A stretch of 64,000 nucleotides of DNA from assembly GCA_963666975.2 (NCBI GenBank), contig CAXVYR010000003.1, forward strand, positions 288,001-352,000, read 5' to 3'. Below the pieces are notes generated by a model. It did not search any database and was not told the DNA's origin. It saw only the letters and a program-made list of their open reading frames with translations. The stretch comes from Terriglobia bacterium. GTDB taxonomy: Bacteria; Acidobacteriota; Terriglobia; 2-12-FULL-54-10. Both the position numbers and the translations under genes were made by a program. Positions 10,892 through 60,512 of the stretch are shown here, in pieces. Each line of letters starts with the position of its first letter. The first letter of the stretch is position 1.

Positions 10892-11962
10892 CGAAGTGAC
10901 GAGTAACGCGCCGTAGCGGATCGGGAAGTATGCCCTGGCCGAGGCGTTCCCATGGTTTCTTCACGGTATGAAATCGGATCGCAAGAAACGCTGGTTCTGT
11001 CTGCGTGGATGAGAATACGCGGCAGTTGGAGCAAGACGTTCTCTTTTCCGCACGTCCCGAAAAATGCGGCTCTCGCAGAGTTGTGAAGACAAAGAGTCGC
11101 TCGAAGCGGATGTACCGCTCGATTGATCGTAAATCCAACCGTAGAACGCGCCCGCTCCGGAACCTCGTCCGAGGATGTTGACATCGTGCACGGCACCGGC
11201 CGTGCTCACGGCGGAGAAACGTGATTCGGGATTTTTGCCCTGCAGGTCTCAGCAGCGTATGCGCTGACGGCAGCCTTACCAGCTGATTGTTGGAATACTT
11301 CCTCGGAGATCGTGGCCCACGGAAACAGCGCAGAGGTCGCAAATGGTGGCTGGAGTCCAGCGGAGGCTCTGACCCAGTCGACGCTTCCCGATCCCCGCAC
11401 ATCGCGCGCATCCACGCCCACGGGCCGTGATGCCGATACCAACCCTCCAGGGCGAAGTCCGACCGTCGGATGCGCCAGTCTCTACCAGTGCGACTCGTTG
11501 GCATCGGCCAGTCCCGGTCGAGTCTTCGCGCCACGTTGCCGCGCAATCCGATAGTCCGCGTCAAAGAGTTTGCTAACGTCTGGAACGCATGACACGCCTC
11601 GATGTCGCGGAGAGCTGGGCTCGCGGTAAGTCACCATTGAGCGCCCATCAGGCCAGAAACTGGTCCCAGCAAGCAGGCAACGCTTCGCAGGTGCCATCGC
11701 GTCTCTCCACGGTATGCGCGTGACGCATTTGTGAAACTCGTACATGAGGGCACGTGATCCATGATAAGCTGAGCGAAAACGGTGCGACCGATGCTTCATG
11801 CACTGATTCTGTCGCCTACCCCAGTCTTTACGTTGCAAAGCCATTTTTCGCCCTCGAAAAGAGGAATTTCAAATCGATAAAATGCTCCAAGGTGCCCGTT
11901 GGAACCTTTTGCTCTCATTTGAGACTTGTTGGCTGTTCTGAAATTTTAGCCGGACAGCAGTG

Positions 11963-12055
11963 CCCCCCTATATACCCACTACAGTCACTACAAACACGTA
12001 ATCGGTTGAGAGGTGCTCGGCCCGCAGCTTGATTTCCGATCAGCGGTTCTGCATT
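11963..12055 (+). repeat. 93-bp direct repeat, copy 2
   Basis: Identical to 10799-10891. Confidence 0.9.
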
Positions 12056-12427
12056 TCAAGGGACTGGCCCGATTCGCACGATCTCCAGTGTGTTCCCATC
12101 CAGAGACGCGCTGACCGCGACCTGCTCCCCGGCGAATCTCCTCAACTCCTCGGCGTCGCCTCGGAGGTTATGGATGACGCCCTCAATGAGCAGGACGTAG
12201 TCGGAGCCATTCTCTACGCAGGCAATGGTGCACTGCTTAGGGTCATCGGTCTTGTGCATCATGCCGCAGGAAGCGTCAGAGATAACGCCCTCGAAGGTAT
12301 GAACGCCCTGGAAAGATTGCTGGGTCTCTGCGGTTTGTTCGCCACTATCAGGCCGCGTGCATCCCGTCAGGACTGCGACGACTAGCAAGGCAACGGAATA
12401 TATACTAACGTAACGCCATATCACCAT
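12056..12427 (-). CDS. Small lipoprotein with a Cys/His motif (DASCGMMH..CTIACV)
   Basis: Lipobox LTGC, AAGGAG RBS. Confidence 0.7.
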   Translation of the reverse strand: MVIWRYVSIYSVALLVVAVLTGCTRPDSGEQTAETQQSFQGVHTFEGVISDASCGMMHKTDDPKQCTIACVENGSDYVLLIEGVIHNLRGDAEELRRFAGEQVAVSASLDGNTLEIVRIGPVP

Positions 12428-12503
12428 TTTGCTATCTCCTTTCCAACCGGTATTTCCATTTTGAGCTTCCCCTTTTCCTCAAAACATACGCCTTGACTGT
12501 CTG

Positions 12504-13088
12504 TCATTCCTGCGGATTCACTTGAGCGTTCTTTTCCCGGATCGCCTTTGCACGGGCTTCCATCTTTGCAGCTTCGCTTTCCCTGTTCGTCTTCCGAAGG
12601 AGGTCGGCGTAGTTCTCCAGGCTAATAGCCACGTTCAGATGCTCCAGGCCCAAGGTCTTTTCACGGATCGCCAGTGAACGTATATACAGAGGCTCGGCCT
12701 CGGCGTACTTCCCCTGGAAACGGTAGAGCGTCGCCAAGTTATTGAGGGTCGTGGCCAGGTTCGGATGCGCTGGCCCGGGAACTTTCTCCTGGATTACCAG
12801 CGACCTCTGGATGAACGACACGGACTCGGCGTAATTGCCCAACTTAATGTACAGCGTCGCTAGACTGTTGAGGTTCCTTACTAGGCGAGGGTCTTCTGGC
12901 ACGAACTTTTCCGCTTCCTGGAGCGCGGCCAGCAACTGCTTCTCAGCCTCGTCGTTACGGCCTTGCCGATAAGCCTTCCTCCCAGCGGTGAAGTATCTTT
13001 CCCATAGCGTATCTTGGGCGGATGCTTGTTCAGAGACCAGCATCAAGCACAAAACACCAAGCAGCGACAAACGAATCTGGGTGCTCAT
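12504..13088 (-). CDS. Exported tetratricopeptide-repeat protein
   Basis: Signal peptide, repeats LNNLATLYRFQGKYAEAEPLYIRSLAIREK, GAGGGAGG RBS. Confidence 0.88.
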   Translation of the reverse strand: MSTQIRLSLLGVLCLMLVSEQASAQDTLWERYFTAGRKAYRQGRNDEAEKQLLAALQEAEKFVPEDPRLVRNLNSLATLYIKLGNYAESVSFIQRSLVIQEKVPGPAHPNLATTLNNLATLYRFQGKYAEAEPLYIRSLAIREKTLGLEHLNVAISLENYADLLRKTNRESEAAKMEARAKAIREKNAQVNPQE

Positions 13089-13448
13089 TAGGCCTCCCTC
13101 TATTTCAACGCTCGAACTTCCCAACCCCTGGAGGACATGATTAGCAAGTCTTGCCACGCTTATAAACCTCCTGGCTGTTGAATTCAAGAGCGTTTGTGAG
13201 GGAAGTGCGACTGGGAGCCGGTGGGACCATCTGGGAGAAAACCCCGTGCCCAGAGGCTCTACTGGGGGCAAAGGGGGTATACTGTCAACCGCCGAAAGGT
13301 CAAAAAACTAATTCCGGGTTAATGAAGGAAGTGCCGGTGAAGTAGTCTCTGACTCTGCTTCTGAAGGTAGTTCACACAATCGGTTCGTCTATTTAATTTC
13401 TCCGACTATTCGATCACTCAGAAGTCGGCTAATCACTGGATTTCAAAA

Positions 13449-16448: not shown

Positions 16449-17395
16449 TGTACGTCGTCAGATAATGTTGGACACAGAGCATAAAAAGATAAGGTGGCGT
16501 TCAGGCTCCTCTGGGTTGATGTTAGGCTGCCCTTCTTTTGAAGTGCAACCGTTTTCTTAAGATCATAGTTTTCTCTTTGATGCGATCCCGTTTTTGCAGG
16601 ATGGCACTGCCTTGGCCTGTAAAAACGTCATACGGTGTCAGGTTGTTCAGGCTTTCATGGTATCGGTTGGTGTTGTAGTGGTTGACGAAGGCATCGATCT
16701 GCCGCTCCAGCTCTTCTGGCAGGTAATAGTTGTTGAGCAGGATGCGGTCTTTCAGAGTTCGGTGCCAGCGTTCGATCTTGCCCTGCGTCATGGGGTGATA
16801 GGGCTTGCCGCGAGTATGCGGCACGCTGTTTTCTGCCAGCCATGATTGCAGTTCGGAAGAGACGTAGCACGGCCCGTTGTCGCTCAGGAGGCGAGGTCTG
16901 TGCCGGGCGCCCACGCGGTCGAGGCCGGTGGCTTGCAAAGCATCCCGCAACGTGGCCGAGACGTCACTTGCGCTCATGGTTTTGCACAGCCGCCAGGCGA
17001 TGATATAGCGCGAGAAGTCGTCCAGCACCGTGGACAGGTAGAACCAGCCCCAACCGATGACTTTCAGGTAGGTGAAGTCGGTCTGCCAGAGCTGGTTGAC
17101 CGCCGTGGTCGGGTTGGCGAACCGTTCCGCCGCTTTCAGGACAATAAAGGCTGGCGCGGTAATCAGGTCATGGCTTTTCAGGACGCGGTAAACCGTCGAT
17201 TCAGAAAGGTAATACCGCCTTTCCTCGGTAAAACGCACCGCCAGCTCGCGTGACGACAGATCGGGCTCGGCCAGGGCTAACGTCACCAACTGCTGAGTTA
17301 TCTCCTCCGGCACCTTGTTCCAGACAGGGCCAGGATCTGGTTTTTTGTCTTCCAGCCCATCAAAGCCTTCCGACACATAGCGGTCGTACCAGTTG
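16449..17395 (-). mobile_element. Partial inverted IS3-family copy (right end plus most of orfB)
   Basis: Reverse complement of 17961-18907, with at least one synonymous difference. Confidence 0.9.
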
Positions 17396-17482
17396 TGTGC
17401 CCCGTCAGGGCTTGTTGGACAGGTAGAGGGTAATAGTTAAGGTGATGTTTTTGGCTCATCGTAGAGACTGAAAGGAACGAAG

Positions 17483-17854: not shown

Positions 17855-18834
17855 GATACCCTGCCTCGGAGAAGCTGGAGATCATCTGCACGGTGGAGCA
17901 ATCTGCCCTGGGGGTGCGCCGGACGCTGCAGCAGGTTGGCATTCCCAGATCGACGTTTTACAACTGGTACGACCGCTATGTGTCGGAAGGCTTTGATGGG
18001 CTGGAAGACAAAAAACCCGATCCTGGCCCTGTCTGGAACAAGGTGCCGGAGGAGATAACTCAGCAGTTGGTGACGTTAGCCCTGGCCGAGCCCGATCTGT
18101 CGTCACGCGAGCTGGCGGTGCGTTTTACCGAGGAAAGGCGGTATTACCTTTCTGAATCGACGGTTTACCGCGTCCTGAAAAGCCATGACCTGATTACCGC
18201 GCCAGCCTTTATTGTCCTGAAAGCGGCGGAACGGTTCGCCAACCCGACCACGGCGGTCAACCAGCTCTGGCAGACCGACTTCACCTACCTGAAAGTCATC
18301 GGTTGGGGCTGGTTCTACCTGTCCACGGTGCTGGACGACTTCTCGCGCTATATCATCGCCTGGCGGCTGTGCAAAACCATGAGCGCAAGTGACGTCTCGG
18401 CCACGTTGCGGGATGCTTTGCAAGCCACCGGCCTCGACCGCGTGGGCGCCCGGCACAGACCTCGCCTCCTGAGCGACAACGGGCCGTGCTACGTCTCTTC
18501 CGAACTGCAATCATGGCTGGCAGAAAACAGCGTGCCGCATACTCGCGGCAAGCCCTATCACCCCATGACGCAGGGCAAGATCGAACGCTGGCACCGAACT
18601 CTGAAAGACCGCATCCTGCTCAACAACTATTACCTGCCAGAAGAGCTGGAGCGGCAGATCGATGCCTTCGTCAACCACTACAACACCAACCGATACCATG
18701 AAAGCCTGAACAACCTGACACCGTATGACGTTTTTACAGGCCAAGGCAGTGCCATCCTGCAAAAACGGGATCGCATCAAAGAGAAAACTATGATCTTAAG
18801 AAAACGGTTGCACTTCAAAAGAAGGGCAGCCTAA
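17851..18834 (+). CDS. IS3-family transposase OrfB (DDE)
   Basis: WQTDFTY, LDDFSR, SDNG, GKIERWHRTLK. Confidence 0.92.
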   Translation: MRYPASEKLEIICTVEQSALGVRRTLQQVGIPRSTFYNWYDRYVSEGFDGLEDKKPDPGPVWNKVPEEITQQLVTLALAEPDLSSRELAVRFTEERRYYLSESTVYRVLKSHDLITAPAFIVLKAAERFANPTTAVNQLWQTDFTYLKVIGWGWFYLSTVLDDFSRYIIAWRLCKTMSASDVSATLRDALQATGLDRVGARHRPRLLSDNGPCYVSSELQSWLAENSVPHTRGKPYHPMTQGKIERWHRTLKDRILLNNYYLPEELERQIDAFVNHYNTNRYHESLNNLTPYDVFTGQGSAILQKRDRIKEKTMILRKRLHFKRRAA

Positions 18835-18907
18835 CATCAACCCAGAGGAGCCTGAACGCCACCTTATCTTTTTATGCTCTGTGTCCAACATTATCTGACG
18901 ACGTACA

Positions 18908-19904
18908 CCTGGACGAACGGGGAGAGATGTCCATTCGCACGGGGTGGGGTTATCTGGGCCCCGATTATTCGCAAGGAACATTGGAAACCATGGCCAGCCT
19001 GGTGGGCACCGGAACGGATTACATGTGGCTGGTGGGTGCTTGGGCGGTGAAAAACGGAGGTTCTTGCACCACTATCAATGCGAAGCCGGAAGTCAAGGCG
19101 AGGGAAAATTGCAACTTTTCACCTCCAGGTTCTGAAGACTTCAAGGAAACCGGCTATCAGCAGATGTACGACATCATCAAGAGTGGGCTGCGAGTGGCTA
19201 CGATGCACTCAGGAGGCGACAAGGACATTGACCAGTACATGGACATTATAGAAAAGGCGAGTGCGGATGCTGGTATGACCCTGGATGAAATCCGCGCGAA
19301 GCGCCACACTTTTGACCATCTAAGTCTTGCTCCTCGTCCGGGGCAACTGGATCGGCTCAAAAAGTTGGGAATGATGACCAGCGGGAACCCCATGTACGTG
19401 TACAACACGGCCCCTGACGTAGCCAAAGATTACGGTGAAGAATACACAGCTTGGATCGATCCGAGGAAAAACCAGGTCGATGCCGGGATTATGAGTTCAT
19501 TAGAGACAGATACTCCACTTAGTCAGCATGAGGGCACGATCTTCGAAGTGGCCGTCGTCGAGTTGACGCGCCGGTCCATGGATGGGAATCTCGTCGAGTT
19601 GACGCGCCGGTCCATGGATGGGAAGGTGCATTCACCCAATATGCAAATGGATCGTGAACGGGTATTGAAATCAATGACGACCTGGGGAGCTTACTACTTA
19701 ATCAGAGAGAAATTGTTAGGATCGCTCGAACCCGGAAAGCTGGCAGACATGATCATCATTGACCGGGATTACCTGACAATTCCAGAAGAGGAGGTTGGCA
19801 AGATTCAGGTGCTGGCAACGATGGTAGGCGGGAAGTTCGTGTATGCGGGTCGGGACTTTGCGACCGAAAACGGAATGAGCCCAGTCGGCTACCAAAGGAA
19901 CTAG
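18908..19904 (+). pseudogene. Amidohydro_3 paralogue 2, C-terminal part
   Basis: Resumes as LDERGEM immediately after the IS. MHSGGDKDID, KRHTFDH, GSLEPGKLAD. Confidence 0.88.
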
Positions 19905-20089
19905 CAATGAGTGGCACCGCCCTTGTGGTGGACACGGCCGTGCGGCACACTTGGCTCTAAAAAAAACGCTGGAAGCCACCACGATAAGGACGAAAGCAGT
20001 GTCAAGGCAAAAGGAAATGATCTGTGCCTCGATCATGGCCCACTAGGGCACTACCTGCGAGGAGGCCCGGCGGAAGCGTAACACTGGTT

Positions 20090-20343
20090 CCGCCCGAGTG
20101 ACGGCGTACTCGGAATGTATGGTCCGCTGATCCGGCCCGAAACTCGACCAAAAGTTCGCCAAGCGCCCCAGAAGTCCGGTTATGGGAAGTTAGGGGCGAA
20201 CGGCACTCTCTGGGATAGATCGCGAGTAACGGCGCAGTAGCGACCTATCCTGCCCGCCGGATAGGTAAATACTACGCGACAAGGCAGGATCTATTTCCCA
20301 GAACGCCGTTTATGTCCAACTACACTACGGCGTCACTCGCAGG
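20090..20343. repeat. Tandem cluster of 11-6-11 Xer/dif-like sites
   Basis: Sites at 20090, 20163 (GCGCCCCAGAA-GTCCGG-TTATGGGAAGT), 20218, 20264 and 20293 (ATTTCCCAGAA-CGCCGT-TTATGTCCAAC). Confidence 0.65.
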
Positions 20344-20475
20344 TAAACGTGGCAAATGTGTCCGCTGAGGGCTATTCTGCTAGGGAGTCGTATCTGAACA
20401 GGGGGTGAATCATCTGGGAGGCCGTTACGGGAAGCTGCTGATGGGAAATTATCGGGGGCTCCGACTCTGATTATT

Positions 20476-20519
20476 GTGTATGCTGGCTGGTGGCCGGGAA
20501 AGCAAAATGGAAATCCTGG
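20476..20519 (+). mobile_element. Isolated IS1380-type right end
   Basis: GTGTATGCTGGC...CAAAATGGAAATCCTGG matches 15719-15762. Confidence 0.7.
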
Positions 20520-20600
20520 CTAATACGAAAAGGAATTATCAAGCGAGAGACGTTTTACTGAACCGGAGTTTTGACTTTTGAAACCGGAGGGCCCGACTGA

Positions 20601-22439
20601 ATGAACCTGGCAAAATTATTATTGATGCGCAGAAAATTCCTAGTTTTCTCCTTTTTGCTGTTTTTCATCTCCCCAAGTGCTTGGGGACAGTCCAATGTAG
20701 CGGCCCTGCTGGGCTACCCGGACCTCATCGTTCACAATGCCAAGATTGTGACCATGGACGATGCCACGTTCGAGTCGAGGGTAGGCACCATCGGGCAAGC
20801 GATGGCGCTGCGCGGGGACAAGGTATTGGCCGTCGGATCCAACTCGGAGATTCGCGCGCTGGCCGGGCCGCAAACCCGGCAGATGGACCTAAAAGGCCGC
20901 ACCGTGCTGCCGAGCTTCATCATGACTCACGAGCACCCCACCGACTGGGCCTTCGCCGAGCCTGAGGCTCTGAAGCACGCCCTGCCTGCGGATAGTGATG
21001 TCATGGTCATGCGGTGGCTGGAAGGGACCGCACAGCAACAACTGGATCAATGGGAGACCGTGCTGAGAGAAGCCGTCGCCGCAGCCAGCCCGGGCCAGTG
21101 GATCTGGCTGAGTTTTTTCTGGGGAACAAATTATGAGCATGCAGATGAACTTTGGCAACAATTTCCCCGTGTGGTCACCCAGGAGCGCCTCGACCAGCTT
21201 GCGCCGAACAATCCTGTCAGGGTTAAGAATAGCTGGCCGCTAATGTCGGCGAACAACACCAAGGCTGTGGAAGAGTTGAAGAAAGTCCATCCGGAAGCTA
21301 GTGCGGGAGCGAACCGCCTGTACGAGCCTAATGTGATCTTCCAGGGCTGGACCGAGGTCTTGGCGGATGTGCTTAAGGCCGAAATGGAGCTGTGGGTGGC
21401 TCAAGGCATCACGACATTTGGCTCCTCTCCTTATGCCTATAACAACTTCCAGGCATTGGCGTATCTGGATCGAAGAGGAGAGATGCCTGCTCGTTTCGCC
21501 TGGGGCTACACCGGCCCCGATTTTCACATCGAGACATTGCGTTACGTTGCGGGATTGGTGGGAAGTGGCAGCCCGTATCTTTGGAACGTGGGTGCCTGGG
21601 ATGCGTCCGGGGGTAGCTGTACGACGCTCAACGCTCGCACGCCCGAAATCAAGGCCCGCGAGAGCTGCAACTTTGCTCCAGGGAGCCCGGGTAGAAAGGT
21701 TCTCGATGATATCATCCGGACCGACGGCCGGGTGGCCACCATGCACACCCAGGGAGACAAGGATATCGACTATTTCATGGACGCTATTGAGCAAGTCAGC
21801 AGAGAGGCAGGCATCTCCTTGGAAGAGATTCGGGCCAAGCGCCACGCCTTTGATCACGCTTCTGGCGCCCCCCGACCGGACCAGATTCCACGCGTTAAGA
21901 ATTTGGGGATGATGGTCAGCATGATCAACACCATGTTGTGGGAAACCCACCGCACTTACGATACTTCCAGCCGTGTGCGCGATTATGGAATCGAGTATGC
22001 CAACCTGTCGGTGCCCCGAAAGAGCGTGACAGACGCGGGAATCATGAACACCTTTGAGATCGATCGTCCGCTGCCGCACCTGGTGTTCACCATGATTCAC
22101 AAAGGCATCACCCGATACAGCGATCAAGACGGCGCAGTCTACGGGCCCCGGGAAAGGACCGACCGGATCATCCAGTTGAAGGCGTTAACGGTGTGGGGAG
22201 GCTATTACGTGCTGCGGGAAAATCTATTGGGAACGCTGGAGCGCGGCAAGTACGCCGATTTCATTGTGCTGGACCGGGACTATCTGACCATTCCGGAAGA
22301 CGATATTCCCAATACCAAAGTCTTGATGACAGTGGTCGGTGGCAAGACGATGCACTTGATGCCTTCTCTGGCGGCGGAGAACGGGATGCAACCGGCGGGC
22401 CCGGTCACGTGGAGCACAAAACCCCTGGAGAATTACTAA
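20601..22439 (+). CDS. Exported Amidohydro_3 paralogue 3
   Basis: Signal peptide, THEHPTDW, MHTQGDKDID, KRHAFDH, EIDRP, GTLERGKYAD. Confidence 0.92.
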   Translation: MNLAKLLLMRRKFLVFSFLLFFISPSAWGQSNVAALLGYPDLIVHNAKIVTMDDATFESRVGTIGQAMALRGDKVLAVGSNSEIRALAGPQTRQMDLKGRTVLPSFIMTHEHPTDWAFAEPEALKHALPADSDVMVMRWLEGTAQQQLDQWETVLREAVAAASPGQWIWLSFFWGTNYEHADELWQQFPRVVTQERLDQLAPNNPVRVKNSWPLMSANNTKAVEELKKVHPEASAGANRLYEPNVIFQGWTEVLADVLKAEMELWVAQGITTFGSSPYAYNNFQALAYLDRRGEMPARFAWGYTGPDFHIETLRYVAGLVGSGSPYLWNVGAWDASGGSCTTLNARTPEIKARESCNFAPGSPGRKVLDDIIRTDGRVATMHTQGDKDIDYFMDAIEQVSREAGISLEEIRAKRHAFDHASGAPRPDQIPRVKNLGMMVSMINTMLWETHRTYDTSSRVRDYGIEYANLSVPRKSVTDAGIMNTFEIDRPLPHLVFTMIHKGITRYSDQDGAVYGPRERTDRIIQLKALTVWGGYYVLRENLLGTLERGKYADFIVLDRDYLTIPEDDIPNTKVLMTVVGGKTMHLMPSLAAENGMQPAGPVTWSTKPLENY

Positions 22440-22507
22440 TTTCCTGGGCCGCTCATTGTGCGTTAAAACTGGACCTTCTTTATCTTCATCCAACCGCATT
22501 TTTGATT

Positions 22508-22544
22508 CCGGTGGCTGGCCGCTTTCTGAGAGGCCAGCCACCGG
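22508..22544. terminator. GC-rich hairpin between convergent genes
   Basis: CCGGTGGCTGGCC-N11-GGCCAGCCACCGG. Confidence 0.6.
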
Positions 22545-22921
22545 GACTCACAAGCGGAGACCTTTGTCTTCCTGATGGGAAGGTCTAGCTCGCTACAGCG
22601 GTTTCTTTCTTATCCACCTTCTCCACCCGAACCGAAACCGGCACCGACTTGGAAACGACGTTGAACACAGGAGAATAATTGGTCGGTTCGGCCATTTCTT
22701 CCGCTGTAATGGCCATTCTGGTAAAATACTTTAAAGCCCTATATAGGAGATTTTCTCTCAATTCAGGTGATTGGATAGGGGCGAAGGCTCCGACGCATCC
22801 CGCGTAGACTTTGGTTGGTTTGGAGAGAAGTAAACTGTTGGCGGGAAGCAAAGCTTCGAGGCTGGGATCTATGAGACTATCGCTGGTTGGTAGCTACTCG
22901 AAATCAAGTCTTCGGGCGTTC

Positions 22922-23431
22922 TCAATTCAGCGTGACGTAGCGCTCTAACCTGGCGACTTCGTTCTCGTTCACATACTTGCCAATCTCGCGCCGGAATTGA
23001 TCGATATTCCGGTACGGGCGGTACTCCTTAAACTCGCGCAGCATCCGGGCACCCACACCGGGGATACTCAGGATGTCTTCGTCGCTCGCAGTATTGAGGT
23101 TGATCGGCACGAAGATGTACTGCTCAAGGCGAGCCACTTCCGCCTCGTCCACGTACTTGCCGATCTCCCTGCGGAACTGCGCGAGCGTTTTGTACGGCCT
23201 GTACTCGAGAAACTCGCGCAGCATCCGGTTCCCCTCGCCAGGGATCATCAGGATCTCCTCCTGCATCGCAGTGTTGAGGTTGATATGGACGAACATCCTT
23301 GCGTACAGCTCAGACAGTTGTTCCTTGTTGAGCGACTGAATGAGGAACGAATGCAGTTCCGTCATGCTCAGGAAGGGGCGTCGCTCTATGATTCCCTTCA
23401 CGATCGCCGTATCGAGGTGCGGAAGCGCCAT
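22922..23431 (-). CDS. Helix-hairpin-helix (ComEA-like) repeat protein, possibly 5'-truncated
   Basis: Two repeats of INLNTA..EIL.IPG.G.RMLREF.EYRPY. Confidence 0.8.
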   Translation of the reverse strand: MALPHLDTAIVKGIIERRPFLSMTELHSFLIQSLNKEQLSELYARMFVHINLNTAMQEEILMIPGEGNRMLREFLEYRPYKTLAQFRREIGKYVDEAEVARLEQYIFVPINLNTASDEDILSIPGVGARMLREFKEYRPYRNIDQFRREIGKYVNENEVARLERYVTLN

Positions 23432-23572
23432 TCCTTATTATTTCGAGTAGCCACCACTTGCTCTGACAAACGCACCCGTGAGGTTCCTGCCCCTTCCTGG
23501 AAGCGGTTCCCGATTGGGGAACTCGACTTCAGTCCTGTCTTCGCCTCCTTCCCCAATCGGTTCTCTTCTGCT

Positions 23573-25462
23573 TTACTGTGACACGGAGTGCCAGCCTGAG
23601 TGCCAGCCCGGTGGAATCTGCTCCCTCCACGTCGTCGGCCCCACCGGCTGCATCCCAACCTCCCGGGCCAACGCGTCCCCCAAGTGCACCGTCTTGCCGC
23701 CGACTACCGTCATCAGTACTTGAATGTTTGGAATGTCATCATCCGGAATCGCCAGAAAGTCCCGATCCAGCACCATGAAGTCCGCAAACTTGCCCGGCTC
23801 CAGCGTTCCCAATAGGTTCTCCCGCATCAAATAGTAGGCACCCCACCGGGTGTGCGCCTTCAACTGGATGATCCGATCCGTCCTCTCCCGCGGTCCATAG
23901 ACTTGTCCATCATCTTTGTTGACTCGAGTCATTCCTTTGTGAATGAACAGGAACACTTTCTCCTGTAATCCCCGATCAATCTCGGCGCCGGTCATCACGC
24001 CCGCATCCGCCATGCTCCTCCGCGGGACAACCCAATTGGCGTATTCAATCCCATACCTCTCGGCTTTCAGCTTTGCCGTGTCACTCCACAAATAGGTGTT
24101 GTTCTGGCTGGCCATCATTCCCAAATTTTTCATCCGGAGAATTTGATCTGGGCGCGGGGCGCCGCCACCGTGGTCAAAGGTATGGCGTTTTGCGCGGATT
24201 TCCTCGAGAGTTAGGCCCGCCCTCTGGCTGGCTTGCTCGATCATATCCATGTAATAGTCGATATCCTTGTCCCCTCCAGTATGCATCGTTGCCACTCGAT
24301 TGCCAGTTGCTATGATCCGTTCCAGAATCTCCCTGCCTTGTGCACCTGGTGCGAAATTGCAGCCTTGCGCCGCCCTCGCGTCTTCCTGACCGGCCCGTAA
24401 GGGAATGCTCATACATTCGGAGCCGATTTCCGCCCAGGCACCCGTAAGCCATAGATGGTCAGTGCCATGTCCCGTCATAGCCGCTATTTGGCGCAGGGTA
24501 TCCATGCTAAAGTCAGGACCGAGATAGCCCCAAGCGAAGCGGGCTGGCATTTCTCCCTTCTTGTCTAAGTAGTCCAGAGCTACGAGGTTGTTATACGCAT
24601 AGGGAGCAGAAGCAAAGGTAGTAATCCCATAGCGCGCCCACACCTCCATTTCGGCTTTGAGAATCTCGGCGAGCACCGGAACCTTGCCCTGGAGCATAAC
24701 ATCCGGTTCTATCGCCCGGCTGAAGCCACTCCCTGTCTTAAAAAACTCTTCGGGGGCCATGATGAACACCGGAGTGGGGGAAAAAATCGAGATGTCCGGA
24801 TGAACCTTGAGCGTCTCGTCAATGGCGCTCTGGTTGGCTACGCCGCCAACAAATCCATTTTTTATCTTCACCGGGTTGTTCGGCGCTAATGTATCGAGCC
24901 ACTCCTTTTTGATGCTGGTGCGAAATAGCTCGGACACTTCATCTATCCATTCATAATTTGGTCCCCGGGAGAAGCCAATTAGAATCCATTGCCCTGGTCT
25001 TGCCTTCGCCACCGCCTCTTTCAGGGTCGGCTCAAATTGTATCAACTGATCCCTCGCGGGACCGCCCCGCAGCCAGCGGTGGACAATGACATCATCATTG
25101 GGCAACGCATGAGTCATGGCTCGTGGTGTCGAAAAGGCCCAATCGGTAGGGTGCTCATGCGTCATCAGGAACCCCGGGAGCACCGTCCTGCCCTTCAGGT
25201 CAATCACCCTGGTCTGGGGCCCCGCCAGCGGCCGAATCTCGGCGTCGCTTCCCGTCGCCAGAATCTTCCCGTCCCGAATCGCCATTGCCTGAACAATGGT
25301 TCCTACCCGAGACTCAAACGAGGCATCATCCACCGTAACAATCTTGCCGTTGTAAATAATCATCGGCGGATAGCCCAGCTTGGCCATGATATCTGCTTGC
25401 TGAGCCCATCCACCAACACACCAAAACATCATTAGCACCGCCGACCAACATCTCTTCTTCAT
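23573..25462 (-). CDS. Exported Amidohydro_3 paralogue 4
   Basis: Signal peptide, THEHPTDW, MHTGGDKDID, KRHTFDH, GTLEPGKFAD, GAGGAGG RBS. Confidence 0.92.
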   Translation of the reverse strand: MKKRCWSAVLMMFWCVGGWAQQADIMAKLGYPPMIIYNGKIVTVDDASFESRVGTIVQAMAIRDGKILATGSDAEIRPLAGPQTRVIDLKGRTVLPGFLMTHEHPTDWAFSTPRAMTHALPNDDVIVHRWLRGGPARDQLIQFEPTLKEAVAKARPGQWILIGFSRGPNYEWIDEVSELFRTSIKKEWLDTLAPNNPVKIKNGFVGGVANQSAIDETLKVHPDISIFSPTPVFIMAPEEFFKTGSGFSRAIEPDVMLQGKVPVLAEILKAEMEVWARYGITTFASAPYAYNNLVALDYLDKKGEMPARFAWGYLGPDFSMDTLRQIAAMTGHGTDHLWLTGAWAEIGSECMSIPLRAGQEDARAAQGCNFAPGAQGREILERIIATGNRVATMHTGGDKDIDYYMDMIEQASQRAGLTLEEIRAKRHTFDHGGGAPRPDQILRMKNLGMMASQNNTYLWSDTAKLKAERYGIEYANWVVPRRSMADAGVMTGAEIDRGLQEKVFLFIHKGMTRVNKDDGQVYGPRERTDRIIQLKAHTRWGAYYLMRENLLGTLEPGKFADFMVLDRDFLAIPDDDIPNIQVLMTVVGGKTVHLGDALAREVGMQPVGPTTWREQIPPGWHSGWHSVSQ

Positions 25463-25577
25463 TATTCCCTCCTCATACTTATCCCAAATTCGATTACCTC
25501 TGGCTGCTTACCTCGAAGTACCCGGCGTGTGGCACAAGATTGGAGCCAGGAACGAACCAGCCGGCTGGAGCTCTTAG

Positions 25578-25642
25578 CCGGAATTTCCATTTTGAGCTTC
25601 ATCTTCACCCGAAAACCTATGCCGCCTACCCTGTCGTGTCAA
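25578..25642 (-). promoter_or_regulatory. IS1380-type end carrying an outward promoter TTGACA-17-TAGGTT
   Basis: -35 at 25642-25637, -10 at 25619-25614, then CAAAATGGAAATTCCGG. Points into paralogue 4. Confidence 0.6.
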
Positions 25643-25665
25643 GCGTGATCGTCATGGCATGGGGC

Positions 25666-25737
25666 CCCCATACCACCCGCACCTAGTGGGCTGAGGATCT
25701 CATACGAGCCAAGACGGGCACCTGGGGATATGGGCAA
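25666..25737 (-). pseudogene. 5' stub of a Hanks-type Ser/Thr kinase (24 codons)
   Basis: TTG start, (M)[23 protein letters not shown]. Nearly identical to the start of 35303. Confidence 0.8.
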
Positions 25738-25857
25738 GTTTTACCCCCCCCCGATGATTGAATTTAATGGGAAAAGATTACACGAGGGGAGAGGGGAAAG
25801 CAATTGCTGGAAGAGGGATAAGCTGAACGGCAGTACGGGGCGGACAAGTCCCGGATT

Positions 25858-25939
25858 ACTCCCCATAAGTCCGGTTATGGGAAGTGTGGGAGGACGGCAG
25901 TCGCCAGGATAGATCTTGAGTAACGGCGCAGGGAAGAGT
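25858..25939. repeat. Pair of Xer/dif-like sites upstream of the recombinase
   Basis: ACTCCCCATAA-GTCCGG-TTATGGGAAGT, a 26-bp linker, then GATCTTGAGTA-ACGGCG-CAGGGAAGAGT. Same layout as 20163-20245. Confidence 0.7.
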
Positions 25940-25983
25940 TTCGGCGGCATTCTTGGCGGCGACGGCAAAGGAGGCCGTCGCCA

Positions 25984-26934
25984 ATGCCAAAATCTAGGAA
26001 GAAGCGGAAATCGCCGAAGCGGGTCCTGGCGCTGCCTGATCTGGAACAATCAAAGTCAGCGGTCCTAAACAGCCTAACGTCAAAGAGTGGTCAACGAACA
26101 TACAACCATGCCATCGACGAGTTTGTCGGGTGGTATTGCTCAGAACCACGCCTGGCTTTCAATCGCACCGTCGTCCTGCGTTATCGAATCCATCTCGAAC
26201 AGAAACAGTACGCTCCGTCAACAGTCAACCTGCGCCTCGCTGCAATCCGGCGTGTTGCGTATGAGGCTGCCGATTCGGGCCTACTCAGCCCGGAGTTGGC
26301 CGCAGGCATCCGCCGGGTCAAAGGAGTTAGGCGGCTCGGTATCCGTGTCGGAAACTGGCTTACTGCTGAACAGGGCAAGCGCCTGTTACAGGGATCATCC
26401 CATGATCACCAGCGTGGCAAGAGGAATTACGCCATGCTAGCGATGCTCATCGGGTGCGGTCTCCGACGCGGCGAACTGTTGGCCTTGAATCTGGACTCGA
26501 TTCAGCAACGGGAGGAACACTGGGTCATTGCGGACTTGATCGGAAAAGGAGGCCACATTCGCACGGTGCCAATCCCAACCTGGGTCAAAGTGGCAATCGA
26601 TGCCTGGACGGAGTCCAGCGGAATCCGGGATGGGCGTGTATTCCGGTCCATCAATAAGGCTAGCAAAATCTGGGGTAACGGCATGACCGAGAAAGTACTC
26701 TGGGAGATTGTTCGAGAAGCGGCAAGTCGGGCAGGGATAGAAAAGCTCGCTCCGCATGACCTGAGACGCACGTGTGCCCGGTTCTGCCATCTGGCGGGTG
26801 GTGAACTGGATCAGATTCAATTCCTTCTCGGGCACGTTTCAATACAGACCACGGAAAGATACTTGGGTTGCAAACAGAGGCTTCATTGCGCTGTCAACGA
26901 CAAGATGGGGATTGAACCAGAGGGTTTCTGTTGA
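25984..26934 (+). CDS. Tyrosine recombinase, XerC/D-sized, intact
   Basis: GLRRGE, GKGG, PHDLRRT, LGH, TERY. Has a core-binding domain but no arm-binding domain. Confidence 0.92.
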   Translation: MPKSRKKRKSPKRVLALPDLEQSKSAVLNSLTSKSGQRTYNHAIDEFVGWYCSEPRLAFNRTVVLRYRIHLEQKQYAPSTVNLRLAAIRRVAYEAADSGLLSPELAAGIRRVKGVRRLGIRVGNWLTAEQGKRLLQGSSHDHQRGKRNYAMLAMLIGCGLRRGELLALNLDSIQQREEHWVIADLIGKGGHIRTVPIPTWVKVAIDAWTESSGIRDGRVFRSINKASKIWGNGMTEKVLWEIVREAASRAGIEKLAPHDLRRTCARFCHLAGGELDQIQFLLGHVSIQTTERYLGCKQRLHCAVNDKMGIEPEGFC

Positions 26935-43251: not shown

Positions 43252-43329
43252 TTACTTCGAGAAGTTAAACGGCCAACCGGACAAGTGCCCTTGTTTCGCG
43301 CAAATCGCAGCGACAAGGACGTCACCTCT

Positions 43330-44448: not shown

Positions 44449-44754
44449 AAGTTAAACGGCCAACCACAAGTGCCCTTGTTTCGCGCAAATCGCAGGACAA
44501 GGACTCACCTCGGCCGCCACTTGGCGACTACACAGGACCTATCCGGGGAAAAGCGGCCAAACTCCATTCAAACCAAGTGCTTGCAGCAGCCTTTCCTTCG
44601 CCGAAACCCAATTGATCGTCCCGTTATTCGGCCAATCGTCTCGGCAATTCTTTGCAAGGCGCTCCCGATCAACGCTAACTACTAGTCAGGGGGTTATTTC
44701 CCACAACGCCGTTTTCCAGTTTCCGAGTCGCCGACCATAATATCCCGGAATGGG

Positions 44755-55891: not shown

Positions 55892-56027
55892 CAAACGCTC
55901 CGCGCCCGGTGCAGACACACCGAACGCAGAGCTAACCACAGCAACCTGCAAGGAGGTCGCAATGGCTGCAAGTATCGTATCACCCACCGAACAATTCCAG
56001 CCGATTCCGAGTCCCGCTACAGCTTCC

Positions 56028-56618
56028 ATGAAAAAGGCCGCCCTCTACGCACGGGTGAGCACCCAAAATGGCCAGAACCCGGAGATGCAACTTAACGAAC
56101 TGCGCTCCTACTGTGAGCGCAGAGGATTGGAGATCGCCGGGGAGTACGTGGACAACGGTGTGAGTGGCGCGAAGGAGCGCCGCCCGCATTTGGACCGTCT
56201 GCTTGCCGATTGCCGACGTAGGATGGTGGATGCGGTTGTGGTGTACCGCTATGACCGCTTTGCCCGGAGCCTGCGCCAACTTGTGAACGCGTTGGAAGAA
56301 TTTCGAGCCTTGGGGATCGACTTCATCAGCTTGCATGAGGGGGTGGACACCAGCACGCCCAACGGCCGGCTTGTGTTCGGGATCTTCGGCAGCATCGCGG
56401 AATTCGAGCGGGAATTGATTCGGAATCGCGTGAAGTCTGGTCTCGCCCACGCCAAAACCAAGGGAGTGAGGCTGGGAAGACCCCGCGTGTATGTGGACCG
56501 CTTCAAGATTGTCCATCTCCGCGATCAGGGACTTGCATGGGCCATGATTGCGAAACAGTTAGGGATTGGTGAAGGAACCGTGCGAAGGGCCTTCCCAAGA
56601 GCGTCTATTTCCAATTAG
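56028..56618 (+). CDS. Serine recombinase (resolvase/invertase)
   Basis: YARVST, DNGVSG, YDRFARS, GVRLGRP and C-terminal HTH. Confidence 0.92.
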   Translation: MKKAALYARVSTQNGQNPEMQLNELRSYCERRGLEIAGEYVDNGVSGAKERRPHLDRLLADCRRRMVDAVVVYRYDRFARSLRQLVNALEEFRALGIDFISLHEGVDTSTPNGRLVFGIFGSIAEFERELIRNRVKSGLAHAKTKGVRLGRPRVYVDRFKIVHLRDQGLAWAMIAKQLGIGEGTVRRAFPRASISN

Positions 56619-56648
56619 CCAACATTGCATCCAGTAGAACGCAGGATA

Positions 56649-56676
56649 GGTAAACACAACGCCGTTTATCGTGATC
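56649..56676. repeat. Xer/dif-like site
   Basis: GGTAAACACAA-CGCCGT-TTATCGTGATC, flanked by GGATA/TATTCC. Confidence 0.65.
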
Positions 56677-56929
56677 TATTCCGGGAGTGCCGTTCACTCA
56701 ACGACCGGATACCCTGAGACTCGGTTCAGCAATTCTGCTGAGGCGCGAGCGGCGGCGGATGTCGCAAAGAGACCGCGAGCACCTGAGCCTATCTGACTCC
56801 CTTTAGCCGGCATTCTTGTTGCAAGAATCCGAGTAGTTAAGTTAACTTAGGTGAGGAGGGTGGCTGTTTAACAGCGAAAAAGCCTATAACCTGGAAAGAG
56901 CGATCCCCGAACGTCCCAGCGGCTCGTTC

Positions 56930-57701: not shown

Positions 57702-57766
57702 GGGATGCTTCTGAAATGGAATTCCCATTATGGCCTCCCGGCAGTGGCAATGATACACCCGTGAGT

Positions 57767-59002
57767 CTAGGGCCTGCGCCCGCGGCCCCGGTTCGAGTTC
57801 GGTCCCCGAATCGAGTTCGATCCCCGAATCGAGTTCGGTCCCCGGTTCGAGTTCGATCCCCGAATCGAGTTCGGTCCCCGGTTCGAGTTCGGTCCCCGGT
57901 TCGAGTTCGGTCCCCGAATCGAGTTCGATCCCCGGTTCGAGTTCGGTCCCCGAATCGAGTTCGGTCCCCGGTTCGAGTTCGGTCCCCGAATCGAGTCCCG
58001 GCCCCGATTGGAATCCCGGCGAGGGTCGCCACTCCTGATCTGGCCTCGCCCCCTCCTCGCATGACCTCCCCCGATGACGATTCGAGGGCTGATGAATCGG
58101 GGGCGGTAGGTGTGCGGGCGATGGATGTGCGGGCGATAGATGCGCGGGGACGGACGAATCACGACGGTGGGTCCGTACACGTGGCGGGGATACGGATCGT
58201 AGTATCCGTAGGGATATCCGTAGTATCCGTAGGGATATCCGTAAGAGAAATGGATGGAGGGTCGGCTCTTGTAATGCCGGCGCGCGGGAACGGCCCGATG
58301 CGTGCGACCGCGCCGCTGGAGCGCCACCGGCTCGTAGTCTTCCTGCCGGACGAGCTGGAAGGCTGCTGCCGAGGAGGCCGTCTCGACCGTGAGCGGCGAC
58401 AGTGTGCGGAAGGTGAGCGTAGACTCGGGATAGACTTCTGTGGGCTTGCCACGGGTGGCCAGAACCCCGATGGTCGAGGCCGCCGCTCCCGCGATCGCTC
58501 CCATGCCTGCGCCAATCCCGCCGTCTACGGCTGCGCCGATCGCCGCTCCGATTCCCGTGGCGGTGCCGATCGCGACTACGTCATTCCCGACAGAAGTCGG
58601 CCCCGCATGCTCGATCCATTCTGTAACCACGAGCAGTTGCGTGCCGTCGACGAGGCTGATCTCGGTCAGCTCCAGACCCAGACTCGACGTTCCGGATCGC
58701 CGCCCGGCTTTCTGCGCCACGACGATGCGTCCCTCCACGGTCTGGCCACGGTGGGCGATGACGAACCCGTTGGCCACCAGCGGCTGCGCCAGCGAGCCGA
58801 TGAAGTAATCGCCCGGCAGATTGTGGTCGCTCGAAATTGGCTGATTCACTCGAATCGAAATCCAAGAGCCGGCCGGCAAGTTCAACTGGGGCGGGGGACT
58901 GCTCCAGCCTACTTGCTGCGCGTTTGCGGACACGGCTCCATTCCAGAGAACCGCGACTGCCAGTGCAAACGAACCGATCGTTATCTTGTGTTTGTTTCCC
59001 AT
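57767..59002 (-). CDS. Exported protein with a beta-rich domain, glycine zipper and Arg-rich repeat tail
   Basis: Signal peptide, LPAGSWISIRVNQPISS, GAAIGA..G.GAGMGAIAGAA, (G-P/S-N-S-N/I-R)n tail. Confidence 0.8.
   Translation of the reverse strand: MGNKHKITIGSFALAVAVLWNGAVSANAQQVGWSSPPPQLNLPAGSWISIRVNQPISSDHNLPGDYFIGSLAQPLVANGFVIAHRGQTVEGRIVVAQKAGRRSGTSSLGLELTEISLVDGTQLLVVTEWIEHAGPTSVGNDVVAIGTATGIGAAIGAAVDGGIGAGMGAIAGAAASTIGVLATRGKPTEVYPESTLTFRTLSPLTVETASSAAAFQLVRQEDYEPVALQRRGRTHRAVPARRHYKSRPSIHFSYGYPYGYYGYPYGYYDPYPRHVYGPTVVIRPSPRIYRPHIHRPHTYRPRFISPRIVIGGGHARRGRGQIRSGDPRRDSNRGRDSIRGPNSNRGPNSIRGPNSNRGSNSIRGPNSNRGPNSNRGPNSIRGSNSNRGPNSIRGSNSIRGPNSNRGRGRRP
57785..57998. repeat. 18-bp coding tandem repeat, 11 units plus 1 degenerate unit
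   Basis: Units CCCCG(GT/AA)TCGAGTTCG(G/A)T. Confidence 0.92.
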
Positions 59003-59221
59003 GTTGATTCTCCTTTAGAGCAGTTGGGATGTCCGTTCGGGCCCCGCATATAGCCGGAGCCGATGTACTTCCAGCCTTCTGGCAACTGCGGATCCTGTTG
59101 GGCGATGAGAAATAGTGGGATTGCAAGCGTGACGGTCAAGGCAGCAGCGAGTTTCATCTTACCCCCTGTTGTTGAGTTCCTGGAGTTCCCGCCAAGTCCA
59201 TGCTAGGAGCCAATAAGAATT

Positions 59222-59256
59222 AATGCAACATAAAAATTGTTGTATTATGTTGCATT
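59222..59256. promoter_or_regulatory. Operator-like inverted repeat between divergent genes
   Basis: AATGCAACATAA-N11-TTATGTTGCATT, perfect 12-bp arms. Confidence 0.7.
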
Positions 59257-59314
59257 CTCATGATCTGTCTTGTATTCTGGAACGATAAGGATGTAGGACG
59301 AATTGCATAGCCAT

Positions 59315-60361
59315 ATGGCCTCTCGCGCCGACCAACGAGCTCAGAAGGAACTGGCGATTCTCCGCGAACGCTTTACTTCCTTGGAAGAGATGGCGGAAGC
59401 CTTGCGCGTCCATACAGGGTTTGAACAACTGCATCGCGCCACCCTATCCCGATGGATGGAACGTCCATCCGCCCGGTCGTCTCTGGCGGTCCAGATTCTG
59501 AATGCCCGCTTGCCTCCCGCGCGGCTTCGCATCGCGGAGCCGCATAGCTTGTCAGTACTTCCTTCTGCAATGCTCAGTTGGGAAGCGCAACTGCGCAAGC
59601 CTTATGGGCTGCTGCAAAAGCGATACGGACTTGCCACGGCAGAAGAGAAAACACGGAGCGGGGGTGATGCTTTCGAGTTGCTCGCCAAGGCCCGGGCGGA
59701 GATCGCCCTGGGCTCCACGGACCTGCTGACTCAATTGGGGCCCGATTGCCTGCGGGTCTGCTCTTTGTCGAAAGTTTACATCACCGGCGTTGCGCGTGTG
59801 CGGATTGAATCCGTGTCGGACCTGCAGGGCAAAACCTTCGGGTACTTGAAAGGTTCCGCATTTGGGATGCGACTGGAGCATCTCACCCGGACGTGGGGAA
59901 TTCGCCTGCCTACGCCTCTGAGTCTGGAGACGGTGAAACACTGCTGTCGGGCACTCCAGGCGGGAGGGATTCAAGGGATGTTTGGCTCGGAGCCATCCGT
60001 AAGCCAGGTCTCCCGGGCTCTCGGACGGTCGGTGCCGCTTTTTCCCATTCGGCAGGGCCTTCTCGGCTCCACCGAGATGCACGTGGCGGTCAACCTGCGG
60101 ACGGTGCATCCGGCGACAGTGCGGGCTTACTTATCCAGCTTGCAGGAAGCAATCCGTTACACGAATGGTCGAAAAGCGGTTCCGGCGTTCCATGCCGAGA
60201 TCGCTTCTCGATACCAGATGAATCCTTGGGACGTGCGGAACGTCCTCACGAATATTCATTTTTCTCTGGGTGACTTCGAGCCGGCCGCCCTACTCCGACT
60301 CTGGGAGCGCGAGGTCGTGGAACTGCGCAAGGGGGTTTGCGGGCCCGTCGGGGAGCGTTGA
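59315..60361 (+). CDS. Putative regulator: N-terminal HTH-like segment fused to a periplasmic-binding-protein type 2 (NMT1/SsuA-like) fold
   Basis: LHRATLSRW, SGGDAFELL, IESVSDLQGKTFGYLKGS, ALQAGGI...EP. No signal peptide. Confidence 0.6.
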   Translation: MASRADQRAQKELAILRERFTSLEEMAEALRVHTGFEQLHRATLSRWMERPSARSSLAVQILNARLPPARLRIAEPHSLSVLPSAMLSWEAQLRKPYGLLQKRYGLATAEEKTRSGGDAFELLAKARAEIALGSTDLLTQLGPDCLRVCSLSKVYITGVARVRIESVSDLQGKTFGYLKGSAFGMRLEHLTRTWGIRLPTPLSLETVKHCCRALQAGGIQGMFGSEPSVSQVSRALGRSVPLFPIRQGLLGSTEMHVAVNLRTVHPATVRAYLSSLQEAIRYTNGRKAVPAFHAEIASRYQMNPWDVRNVLTNIHFSLGDFEPAALLRLWEREVVELRKGVCGPVGER

Positions 60362-60438
60362 TCAGGAGCGCCTCGGTGCAGTGCATTGCTAGTGCAACTA
60401 CTTGGTTTGAATGGGATTCGGTCGTGTTTCGCCGGATA

Positions 60439-60512
60439 GGTCCTCACTAGTCGCCTAGCGTTTACCTATCCGGCTCGCAGGATAGGTCGCCACTACGCCG
60501 TTACTCATTACC
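60439..60512. repeat. Pair of Xer/dif-like sites
   Basis: GGTCCTCACTA-GTCGCC-TAGCGTTTACC, linker TATCCGGCTCGCAGGATA, GGTCGCCACTA-CGCCGT-TACTCATTACC. Inverted homologue of 28081-28154. Confidence 0.65.

Follow-up and report, generated by a model that had tools for sequence, protein, structure and literature searches.

Two-armed sites with a fixed six-nucleotide spacer and a site-bounded Xer-like recombinase gene: a candidate module-exchange system in a Terriglobia genome

The stretch of DNA analyzed here (the window) comprises 64,000 nucleotides of the genome of a Terriglobia bacterium and corresponds to positions 288001-352000 of contig C3. Its cargo is mixed and includes paralogous amidohydrolase genes, a dienelactone-hydrolase-family gene, small serine recombinase genes and transposase genes. 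Between the genes lie short palindromic sites, each with two arms around a spacer of six nucleotides, and one small gene beginning at 25984 encodes an Xer-like tyrosine recombinase. An initial annotation of the window had listed 18 coordinates as a network of dif-like sites with an 11-6-11 architecture. The sites, the recombinase gene and the relation between them are the subject of this report, and sites are referred to below by the positions used in that annotation.

A 17-nt half-site matrix was constructed from ten window sites, taken by their coordinates, and was used to scan the whole genome (4.23 Mb in four contigs) with a threshold of 6 bits per arm. With this first matrix, 40 inverted arm pairs were found at a spacing of 6 nt, and each of the 12 other spacings between 0 and 12 gave 0 to 4 pairs. 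The matrix was then rebuilt over three rounds, which yielded a final set of 45 sites at spacing 6 versus 0 to 4 at each other spacing. The pairs at spacings other than 6 appear unrelated and noise-like. The two-armed site family is real. Since arm pairs pile up at spacing 6 only, its true architecture is 17-6-17, or two 17-nt arms with a strict 6-nt spacer; the conserved arms are 17 nt long, and the proposed 11-6-11 architecture was not borne out. When the sites are printed with wider flanks, most arms are seen to open with GGATAG or GGATTA as an outer box and to close with TA beside the G+C-rich 6-mer. The same spacing stands out in the flanks of related recombinase genes from 79 other genomes (597 kb), where 12 pairs were found at spacing 6 and 0 to 3 at other spacings.

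The sites are spread over three large contigs of 0.44, 1.37 and 2.41 Mb. They are concentrated in a few islands: clusters occupy 308-368 kb of C3 (in the window and a little past its end), 1143-1176 kb of C3 and 715-737 kb of C4, and smaller groups lie at C4:1235 kb, C4:2017 kb and C2:2-3 kb. By crude gene calls, 35 of the 45 sites are intergenic, and the non-coding share of the genome is 12%. No Rfam matches were found in the window.

The 45 sites were oriented by their spacers, which gave 26 class I and 19 class II sites. The class I spacer is ACGGCG (20 exact and three with one change) and the class II spacer, read in the same arm order, is GTCGCC (14 exact and four with one change). Thus, the spacer is exactly one or the other in 34 of the 45 sites and within one mismatch in 41, in agreement with the few spacer classes noted at first. 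In this orientation the left arms, designated X, share TCCYGWGTA (in fuller form roughly GATWRnTCCYGWGTA), and the right arms, designated Y, share GGTAAACACTA (in fuller form roughly GGATAGGTAAACACTA). Over ten variable positions, the mean identity was 5.5 for X-X, 6.0 for Y-Y and 3.7 for X-Y comparisons. The X and Y arms of one site were no more alike than those of different sites (3.68 versus 3.65 of 10, a value reached by 2,326 of 5,000 permutations), so there is no sign of selection for a hairpin. Judging by these patterns, X and Y arms appear to behave as two kinds of protein-binding half-site.

Orientation is also ordered. Nearly half of the sites (22 of 45) form 11 head-to-head pairs with starts 46-47 nt apart, and in all 11 pairs the Y arms face inward and each class contributes one spacer; the two spacers of a pair are not complementary. 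Among other neighboring sites within 15 kb, orientation alternates in 13 of 19 cases. Alternating sites would cut the DNA into "Y modules," with Y arms inside, and "X modules," with X arms inside, each with one spacer allele per end. In these terms the order in the window is recombinase Y module, hydrolase X module and empty Y module. The sites and modules of the window are as follows.

20084-20123, plus strand: weak variant (20090 in the initial annotation); 7-nt inner palindrome around ACGGCG, poor outer arms; arm scores -11.2 and 3.7; resembles a unit at C4:728230
20157-20196, unstranded: variant (initially 20163); spacer GTCCGG, inner arms X-like on both sides
20212-20251, plus strand: full 17-6-17 site, X to Y, ACGGCG, class I; first of a head-to-head pair
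20258-20297, minus strand: full site, Y to X, spacer CGCGAC (class II with one change); second of the pair, 46 nt after the first
20287-20326, minus strand: weak variant (initially 20293), CGCCGT; overlaps the preceding arm; same arrangement at C3:1146754 and at locus L001 of the set described below
25852-25891, unstranded: site with strong X arm "a" (GGATTACTCCCCATAA), spacer GTCCGG, X-like right arm; sole CATAA-N6-TTATG site in the genome
25906-25945, plus strand: left junction of the recombinase module; host-side X arm, ACGGCG spacer at 25923-25928, then the diverged Y-type end of the module
25923-26985, plus strand: recombinase Y module of 1,063 bp, counted with both spacers in full; the right spacer is GGCGAC (26980-26985)
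25984-26934, plus strand: Xer-like tyrosine recombinase gene, 316 aa, without an arm-binding domain
26963-27002, minus strand: right-end site of the recombinase module; Y-like arm (8.9), GGCGAC, degenerate X' arm (-3.9)
26986-28091, plus strand: neighboring X module with a dienelactone-hydrolase-family gene at 27085-28023
28075-28114, plus strand: full site, class I (ACGGCG), X to Y; closes the recombinase and hydrolase pair
28121-28160, minus strand: full site, class II (GGCGAC on the plus strand); its X' arm is the "a" arm
28525-28564, plus strand: full site, class I; copy within a 450-nt tandem duplication
28571-28613, minus strand: class II copy with a 3-nt insertion between spacer and X' arm; probably inactive
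31107-31129, plus strand: X arm "a" and spacer GTCGGG, cut at the spacer by an IS30-family element (about 31130-32355); right-arm remnant at about 32356-32372
44506-44545, minus strand: one-strong-arm site; weak Y-type left arm, GGCGAC, strong X' arm; left edge of an ORF-less module of about 180 nt (ORF, open reading frame)
44690-44729, minus strand: weak variant (initially 44696), CGCCGT; right edge of the same ORF-less module
56643-56682, minus strand: full site, class I (CGCCGT on the plus strand); 30 nt past the stop of a serine-recombinase gene
60433-60472, plus strand: full site, class II (GTCGCC); first of a head-to-head pair
60479-60518, minus strand: full site, class I (CGCCGT); second of that pair

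The sequences quoted in the initial annotation are present at all 18 of its coordinates, and half-site scoring sorted these coordinates by quality. Eight are full sites that score high on both arms (20218, 20264, 28081, 28127, 28531, 56649, 60439 and 60485). Four have a single strong arm (25858, 25912, 31113 and 44512), and the X arm of 25858 is identical to that of 31113. Four others (20090, 20163, 20293 and 44696) are weak variants, yet they reappear at other loci. The remaining two were unsupported: 10895 scores at background level and marks the edge of a 102-nt repeat and of a repeated element of about 1.1 kb, and 32370 is wrongly placed, as what remains of the right arm next to the IS30-family element is located about 15 nt further left. 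Two sites were absent from the earlier list, namely 28577 (the copy with 3 nt inserted) and 26969 (where the recombinase module ends on its right). The IS30-family element itself (NCBIfam NF033563, 240 bits) is present in a single copy, located at the spacer of the 31113 site. The tandem duplication of 450 nt spans window 28006-28649 and holds a pair of sites, one of each class, together with the arm "a"; its duplicates are identical (141 nt and 50 nt at 100%) save for the 3-nt insertion at the border of the second class II spacer and its arm.

Comparison of the window with other loci of the same genome places homology breaks at the spacers. For example, window 25840-25928 matches C4:1235876-1235787 with 95.6% identity, and the match stops at 25928, the last spacer base of the 25912 site. 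A longer alignment to the C4 locus, over 25675-25928, has 81% identity and also stops at 25928. At the C4 locus the same X arm and spacer continue uninterrupted into an ordinary Y arm and a second site. In the window, 25928 is followed by the recombinase gene, a Y-like arm with GGCGAC, the hydrolase gene and the 28081 ACGGCG site, which continues as at C4. Therefore, relative to the C4 paralogue, one Y module and one X module are inserted between direct same-spacer sites.

Two further cases bear on the reuse of arms and modules. The X arm "a" together with GTC, the first three spacer bases, occurs in nine copies with at least four different right partners, two of which recur with their own flanks; the earlier observation that arms are reused in new combinations thus holds. 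In addition, the ORF-less unit of about 180 nt between the 44512 and 44696 sites recurs at four to five loci, and its left edge falls at the spacer in all comparisons, its right edge in one of three. An aggregate identity profile over all sites was dominated by the pair partner and was uninformative on breakpoints. Breakpoints could not be placed against two same-genus genomes because identity to them is about 70-86% and the genes map to scattered places.

The protein encoded at 25984 contains the Pfam phage-integrase catalytic domain (PF00589, 84.9 bits). Equivalog identity as XerC, XerD or XerA was rejected, since its NCBIfam scores are near 100 bits and far below the curated cut-offs (XerD 102.4 versus 329.6, XerC 100.8 versus 335.2 and XerA 99.9 versus 220). 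The solved structures closest to it are those of an archaeal XerC-like/XerA protein (E 3.9e-14), of E. coli XerD and of XerA. Residues 64-296 align to the archaeal protein, and the GLRxxE, HxLRH/R and GH...Y motifs are in register. IntI4 matches only weakly, at the C-terminus, and the integron integrase model TIGR02249 matches at residues 229-300 only, with 48.2 bits and a cut-off of 265. The protein is predicted to be an Xer-type simple tyrosine recombinase with an Xer-like core-binding region and without an arm-binding domain. It is encoded by a single gene copy in this genome, where the next best matches are the host XerD-like (33%) and XerC-like (27%) genes.

More than 8,000 relatives of the protein were scored; those among the 120 matches listed are 79-100% identical to it, and the named ones among them come from metagenome-assembled genomes (MAGs) of Acidobacteriota. 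By contrast, named relatives of the host's RecD2 helicase, at 66-68% identity, come from both Verrucomicrobia and Bryobacterales, so that this protein does not fix the phylum of the host. The ribosome-binding site of the gene lies in the loop of a conserved hairpin (window 25945-25986, GGCGACGG ... CCGTCGCC around AAGGAGG; loci L001-L079). This hairpin is kept in other clades with different stems, for example CGCGGT/ACCGCG and CAGCGGT/GCCGCTG, which suggests translational control of the recombinase.

The serine recombinases were considered as the enzyme linked to the sites and were rejected, as only one of six matches in the genome adjoins a site. The window contains two paralogous small genes of this kind (7634-8584 and 55962-56618), the second of which ends 30 nt before the 56649 site.

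The surroundings of the recombinase gene were compared across 79 loci from reference genomes, 75 of which carry Acidobacteriota titles, and 80 metagenome loci. In the 79 loci, conservation upstream of the gene reaches as far as ACGGCG, ACGCCG, ACGGGC or a similar word, before which there is an X-like arm and then unrelated sequence. Downstream, conservation stops at GGCGAC or GCCGAC, followed by an X'-like arm. The clearest pairs show the same limits. For example, L038 and L039, two copies separated by 30 kb of a single contig, share exactly 1,051 bp at 100% identity, spacer to spacer inclusive, with unrelated flanks. L033 and L053, from one MAG, are 99.9% identical over 1,053 bp, and L023 and L024, from two MAGs, are 99.0% identical over 1,051 bp. 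There were 106 locus pairs with at least 90% identity; both homology ends were internal in 64 of them, and the homologous length was 1,050-1,059 bp in 20 of these 64. The picture is less clean at lower identity. The hydrolase adjoins the recombinase in none of the 79 loci, so the two are separate modules. These comparisons indicate that the recombinase unit of about 1,051 bp is a discrete element that has apparently moved recently in other genomes, among them those of many soil bacteria.

Simple integration of such a unit, by recombination of a Y-Y' circle junction with an X-X' target, was considered and rejected, as the recombinase unit has a different spacer on each side. No unfilled target of the form X-ACGGCGAC-X', in which the spacer would be 8 nt long, was found in the genome, and the matches at other spacings were noise-like.

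The closest described parallel is provided by the dif modules of Acinetobacter Rep_3/OrfX plasmids. According to a 2026 paper on Acinetobacter plasmids (PMC13141974), a dif-module site consists of a XerC arm, a 6-bp spacer and a XerD arm. The modules are of C and D kinds, named by the inward-facing arm, which alternate, and each lies between inversely oriented sites. Recombination events need identical or near-identical spacers. Adjacent C and D pairs can be excised, and single modules are thought to move via a cointegrate that is resolved at a second site pair. Movement of dif modules has to date been described for Acinetobacter, and how it works is a matter of debate.

Compared with the dif modules as that account presents them, the X/Y sites share asymmetric arms of two types with a 6-nt spacer, two alternating kinds of module with inversely oriented boundary sites, module pairs between direct sites, and modules without ORFs. 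Every structural rule of dif modules given there has an apparent counterpart in the arrangement of the X/Y sites. There are also differences. The X/Y arms are 17 nt long and different in sequence, there are two dominant spacer alleles, one per module end, and the sites lie on large contigs of a non-Acinetobacter genome and not on small plasmids. In addition, one of the X/Y modules has a dedicated Xer-like recombinase gene, which accompanies the sites in many genomes, and the X/Y system is known here from the arrangement of sequences, not from experimental rearrangement. The likeness to dif that was claimed initially extends to two arms with a 6-nt spacer; the CATAA-N6-TTATG core is present at one genome site only (25858). 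Among the titles of the top results of full-text searches in one literature library, none described such a system in Acidobacteriota.

With moderate confidence, we consider that an Xer-type recombinase exchanges modules at two heterospecific spacers and that the unit at 25984 is the autonomous member of the system. The sites would be core sites for site-specific recombination by an Xer-type tyrosine recombinase, and the two spacer alleles, ACGGCG and GTCGCC, would be incompatible with each other. A minimal Y module, about 1.05 kb long, would have the recombinase gene as its cargo and is taken to supply the enzyme; we infer that this recombinase, rather than host XerC/XerD, binds and cuts the sites. 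The non-autonomous cargo would comprise the amidohydrolases, the dienelactone-hydrolase-family gene, ORF-less units and the 40-nt "empty" Y modules that form the head-to-head pairs. Movement could take two routes. In the first, an X and Y pair between direct same-spacer sites would leave as a circle and re-enter at any site that has this spacer; the recombinase and hydrolase pair between 25912 and 28081, flanked by direct ACGGCG sites, has this form. In the second, a single module would be swapped in two steps, with one crossover at each of two different spacers.

The proposal that the sites are Xer-like crossover points partitioning movable modules, which was already made in the initial annotation, gains from the homology that stops at the spacers, from the grammar of arms and orientations and from the recombinase gene being bounded by sites in many genomes; no recombination event was observed. 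The circular intermediates that had been suggested were not detected, as terminal overlap was present in none of the 87 short loci (6 kb or less). The description of the system as integron-like was not borne out either: the integrase model falls far short of its cut-off, the arms are not complementary, and the modules occur in both orientations.

Several observations weigh against module exchange by the recombinase at 25984. First, the fixed spacing in all copies may partly reflect common descent of the repeats and not function. The case for function is built on arms and flanks that assort freely and on module boundaries that are exact. Secondly, these regularities have exceptions. Orientation fails to alternate in six of the 19 other neighbors within 15 kb, the inner arms of the recombinase module itself match the Y consensus poorly, and in pairs with at least 90% identity the homology ends lie within 3 nt of a spacer-like word in 46 of 79 cases on the left, 24 of 72 on the right and 13 of 64 on both sides. 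Third, there is a single copy of the recombinase, yet the sites occupy three contigs, and sites and recombinase co-occur only in G000 among 41 related genomes. Looser searches of G001, G002, G009, G028 and G036 gave only Xer-like proteins of about 30% identity and a 56-residue N-terminal fragment in G028. Fourth, besides the missing circles, no recombination product was seen over 19000-33000 in four of the six public runs that contain the stretch; the assembled contigs of these four contained the assembled arrangement only. The contigs of these runs break at repeats, and one contig spans 25899-28115 in three of the four. The joints listed fit paralogous loci; for example, a joint from 25928 to 20247 with 12 letters between (runs X18 and X19) matches the uninterrupted C4 site. 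These contigs say nothing for or against excision.

The occurrence of the sites in relatives bears on which enzyme acts on them. A strict Y-arm pattern was found in five of the 41 related genomes (8 matches in G000, 1 in G002, 2 in G009, 10 in G028 and 13 in G036), and a reversed control gave 1 in all. G009, G028 and G036 have complete 17-6-17 sites whose arms and spacers are of other alleles. The recombinase itself was found in three of the 41, namely G000, G033 (two copies) and G005 (a fragment). Since sites occur in relatives without the recombinase, either they outlast their enzyme, in the manner of non-autonomous elements, or XerC/XerD or another enzyme of the host acts on them.

The second option amounts to the main rival account of the same network of sites and modules, in which host XerC/XerD or another recombinase would act in trans and the gene at 25984 would be mere cargo or serve only itself. 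We regard this as rather unlikely. It would fit the two distinct arm types, which recall the sites bound by XerC and by XerD, the sites in G009, G028 and G036 without a close homologue of the recombinase, and a grammar equal to that of dif modules, for which XerC/XerD are proposed. The genome also encodes a XerC/XerD-like pair (C4:1261116-1262084 and C4:1823226-1824104; 37% identical to each other). However, single-recombinase Xer systems with asymmetric arms exist, namely XerH and XerS, so asymmetric arms need not mean two enzymes. The 17-nt arms with an outer GGATAG box and the confinement of the dif-like core to one site also speak against the host enzymes, as does the failure to find a chromosomal dif similar to them; the one dif-like candidate (C3:603309) lies about 30 kb from the C3 skew maximum and is without a counterpart on the other contigs. 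Lastly, the tie between the recombinase family and these junctions across the 79 and 80 loci would be unexpected for a mere passenger.

A further account, which we consider improbable, takes the sites to be intergenic palindromes of the REP/BIME kind, structural or spread by another enzyme, that merely serve as preferred insertion targets for mobile elements, among them the recombinase unit and the IS30-family element. The sites resemble REP/REPIN-RAYT repeats in being short, intergenic, palindromic and often arranged as inverted doublets, one of them has the IS30-family element at its spacer, and they persist in relatives without the recombinase. The genome, moreover, has many other short repeat families and three weak matches to Y1 transposases (PF01797). 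However, the sites are not REP-like: the X and Y arms do not covary, so that the hairpin signal is absent, and there are only about 45 copies, clustered in few islands. The spacers of a pair are not complementary, homology breaks at the palindrome center, and comparison of coordinates placed none of the 45 sites near the three Y1-transposase matches. In addition, the recombinase unit lies between two X arms with different spacers, unlike a simple insertion into one X-Y palindrome, and the 8-nt-spacer target expected to be left unfilled is missing.

Operators of a dimeric or tetrameric transcription factor regulating the adjacent genes are a scarcely credible explanation. In its favor, the palindromic architecture with fixed spacing and the position of some sites about 100 nt upstream of paralogous amidohydrolase genes, beside a conserved upstream motif, could be cited. 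Against it, the sites are as frequent at 3' ends as at 5' ends and are also present between convergent genes, an operator 40 nt long whose conserved spacer is asymmetric would be atypical, and the homology breaks at spacers and the mobile recombinase unit would be left unexplained.

Exchange of modules by the 25984 recombinase can also be set beside other recombination systems. XerA and XerH systems resolve chromosome dimers and have one site per replicon. XerA/dif and XerH/difH (structures 4a8e and 5hxy) are alike in having a simple tyrosine recombinase without an arm-binding domain and a 6-nt spacer; here, by contrast, there are about 45 sites and the recombinase gene is itself mobile. Both are single-recombinase Xer systems; XerA/dif is archaeal, and XerH is the subject of PMC5241119.

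Integrons share with the X/Y system a tyrosine recombinase gene beside its own site and gene-sized units separated by recombination sites. They differ in that X/Y modules have their own upstream regions and the recombinase gene sits within a module instead of on a fixed platform. An integron was rejected as the identity of the system because there is no IntI-type integrase and no attC-like complementarity of the arms.

In engineered cassette exchange with heterospecific lox or FRT sites, a segment between two different spacers is not inverted or deleted, and it can be swapped for another segment with the same spacers. The X/Y system would be a natural version of this arrangement, with exchange as its presumed outcome.

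It is almost as likely as not that the unit of about 1.05 kb, with its Xer-like recombinase gene flanked by inverted Y arms, is a new kind of minimal mobile element that docks through two different spacers and, with the X/Y sites, makes up a natural cassette-exchange system building and reshuffling chromosomal arrays of gene modules in Acidobacteriota and their neighbors. If so, the dif-module principle would be generalized beyond Acinetobacter plasmids and provided with a dedicated enzyme, and module exchange at asymmetric sites with 6-bp spacers would be a general way to assemble accessory gene islands. The system would also offer a simpler test bed, with one small gene and two spacer alleles, and would explain why few "integrase" genes of soil metagenomes are as conserved as the one for this recombinase. 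Two heterospecific natural sites with one small recombinase could, in addition, serve genome engineering.

Several other repeats and elements were observed in the window. An element of about 1.17 kb at 43333-44448 has some 70 matches across the genome, with identities of about 94%, and megablast gave 23 full-length copies. Its two ORFs are without a Pfam match, one of them also without an NCBIfam match, and its conserved left end reaches further in other copies. Here it is flanked by a direct repeat of 63-67 nt (43262-43328 and 44449-44511), which the other copies do not have. An element of about 1.08 kb at 10883-11962 (window 10799-12064) has about ten copies at 80% identity, lies between 102-nt direct repeats that are 97% identical, and contains a 246-aa ORF without a family match. 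A 948-nt inverted repeat (16449-17396 and 17960-18907) has arms that are 100% identical and 563 nt apart, each with an rve-type (IS481-like) transposase gene, and is either a composite structure or an assembly artefact.

The Amidohydro_3 family (about 620 aa) is represented in window 8654-37685 by six copies or fragments, five of them about 610-690 aa long, and has about 40 matches in the genome. A conserved motif of about 60 nt, without an Rfam match, lies upstream of the paralogous Amidohydro_3 genes at 8469-8529, 25746-25806, 30987-31047 and 35229-35285, as well as at many other loci here and in same-genus genomes, and may be a shared promoter or leader. Within an amidohydrolase gene, 36 nt at 19555-19590 are missing from all four public runs compared, which looks like a difference in tandem-repeat copy number. 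Lastly, window 57750-58055 contains at least 12 tandem 18-nt repeats within an ORF with DUF1388 repeats.

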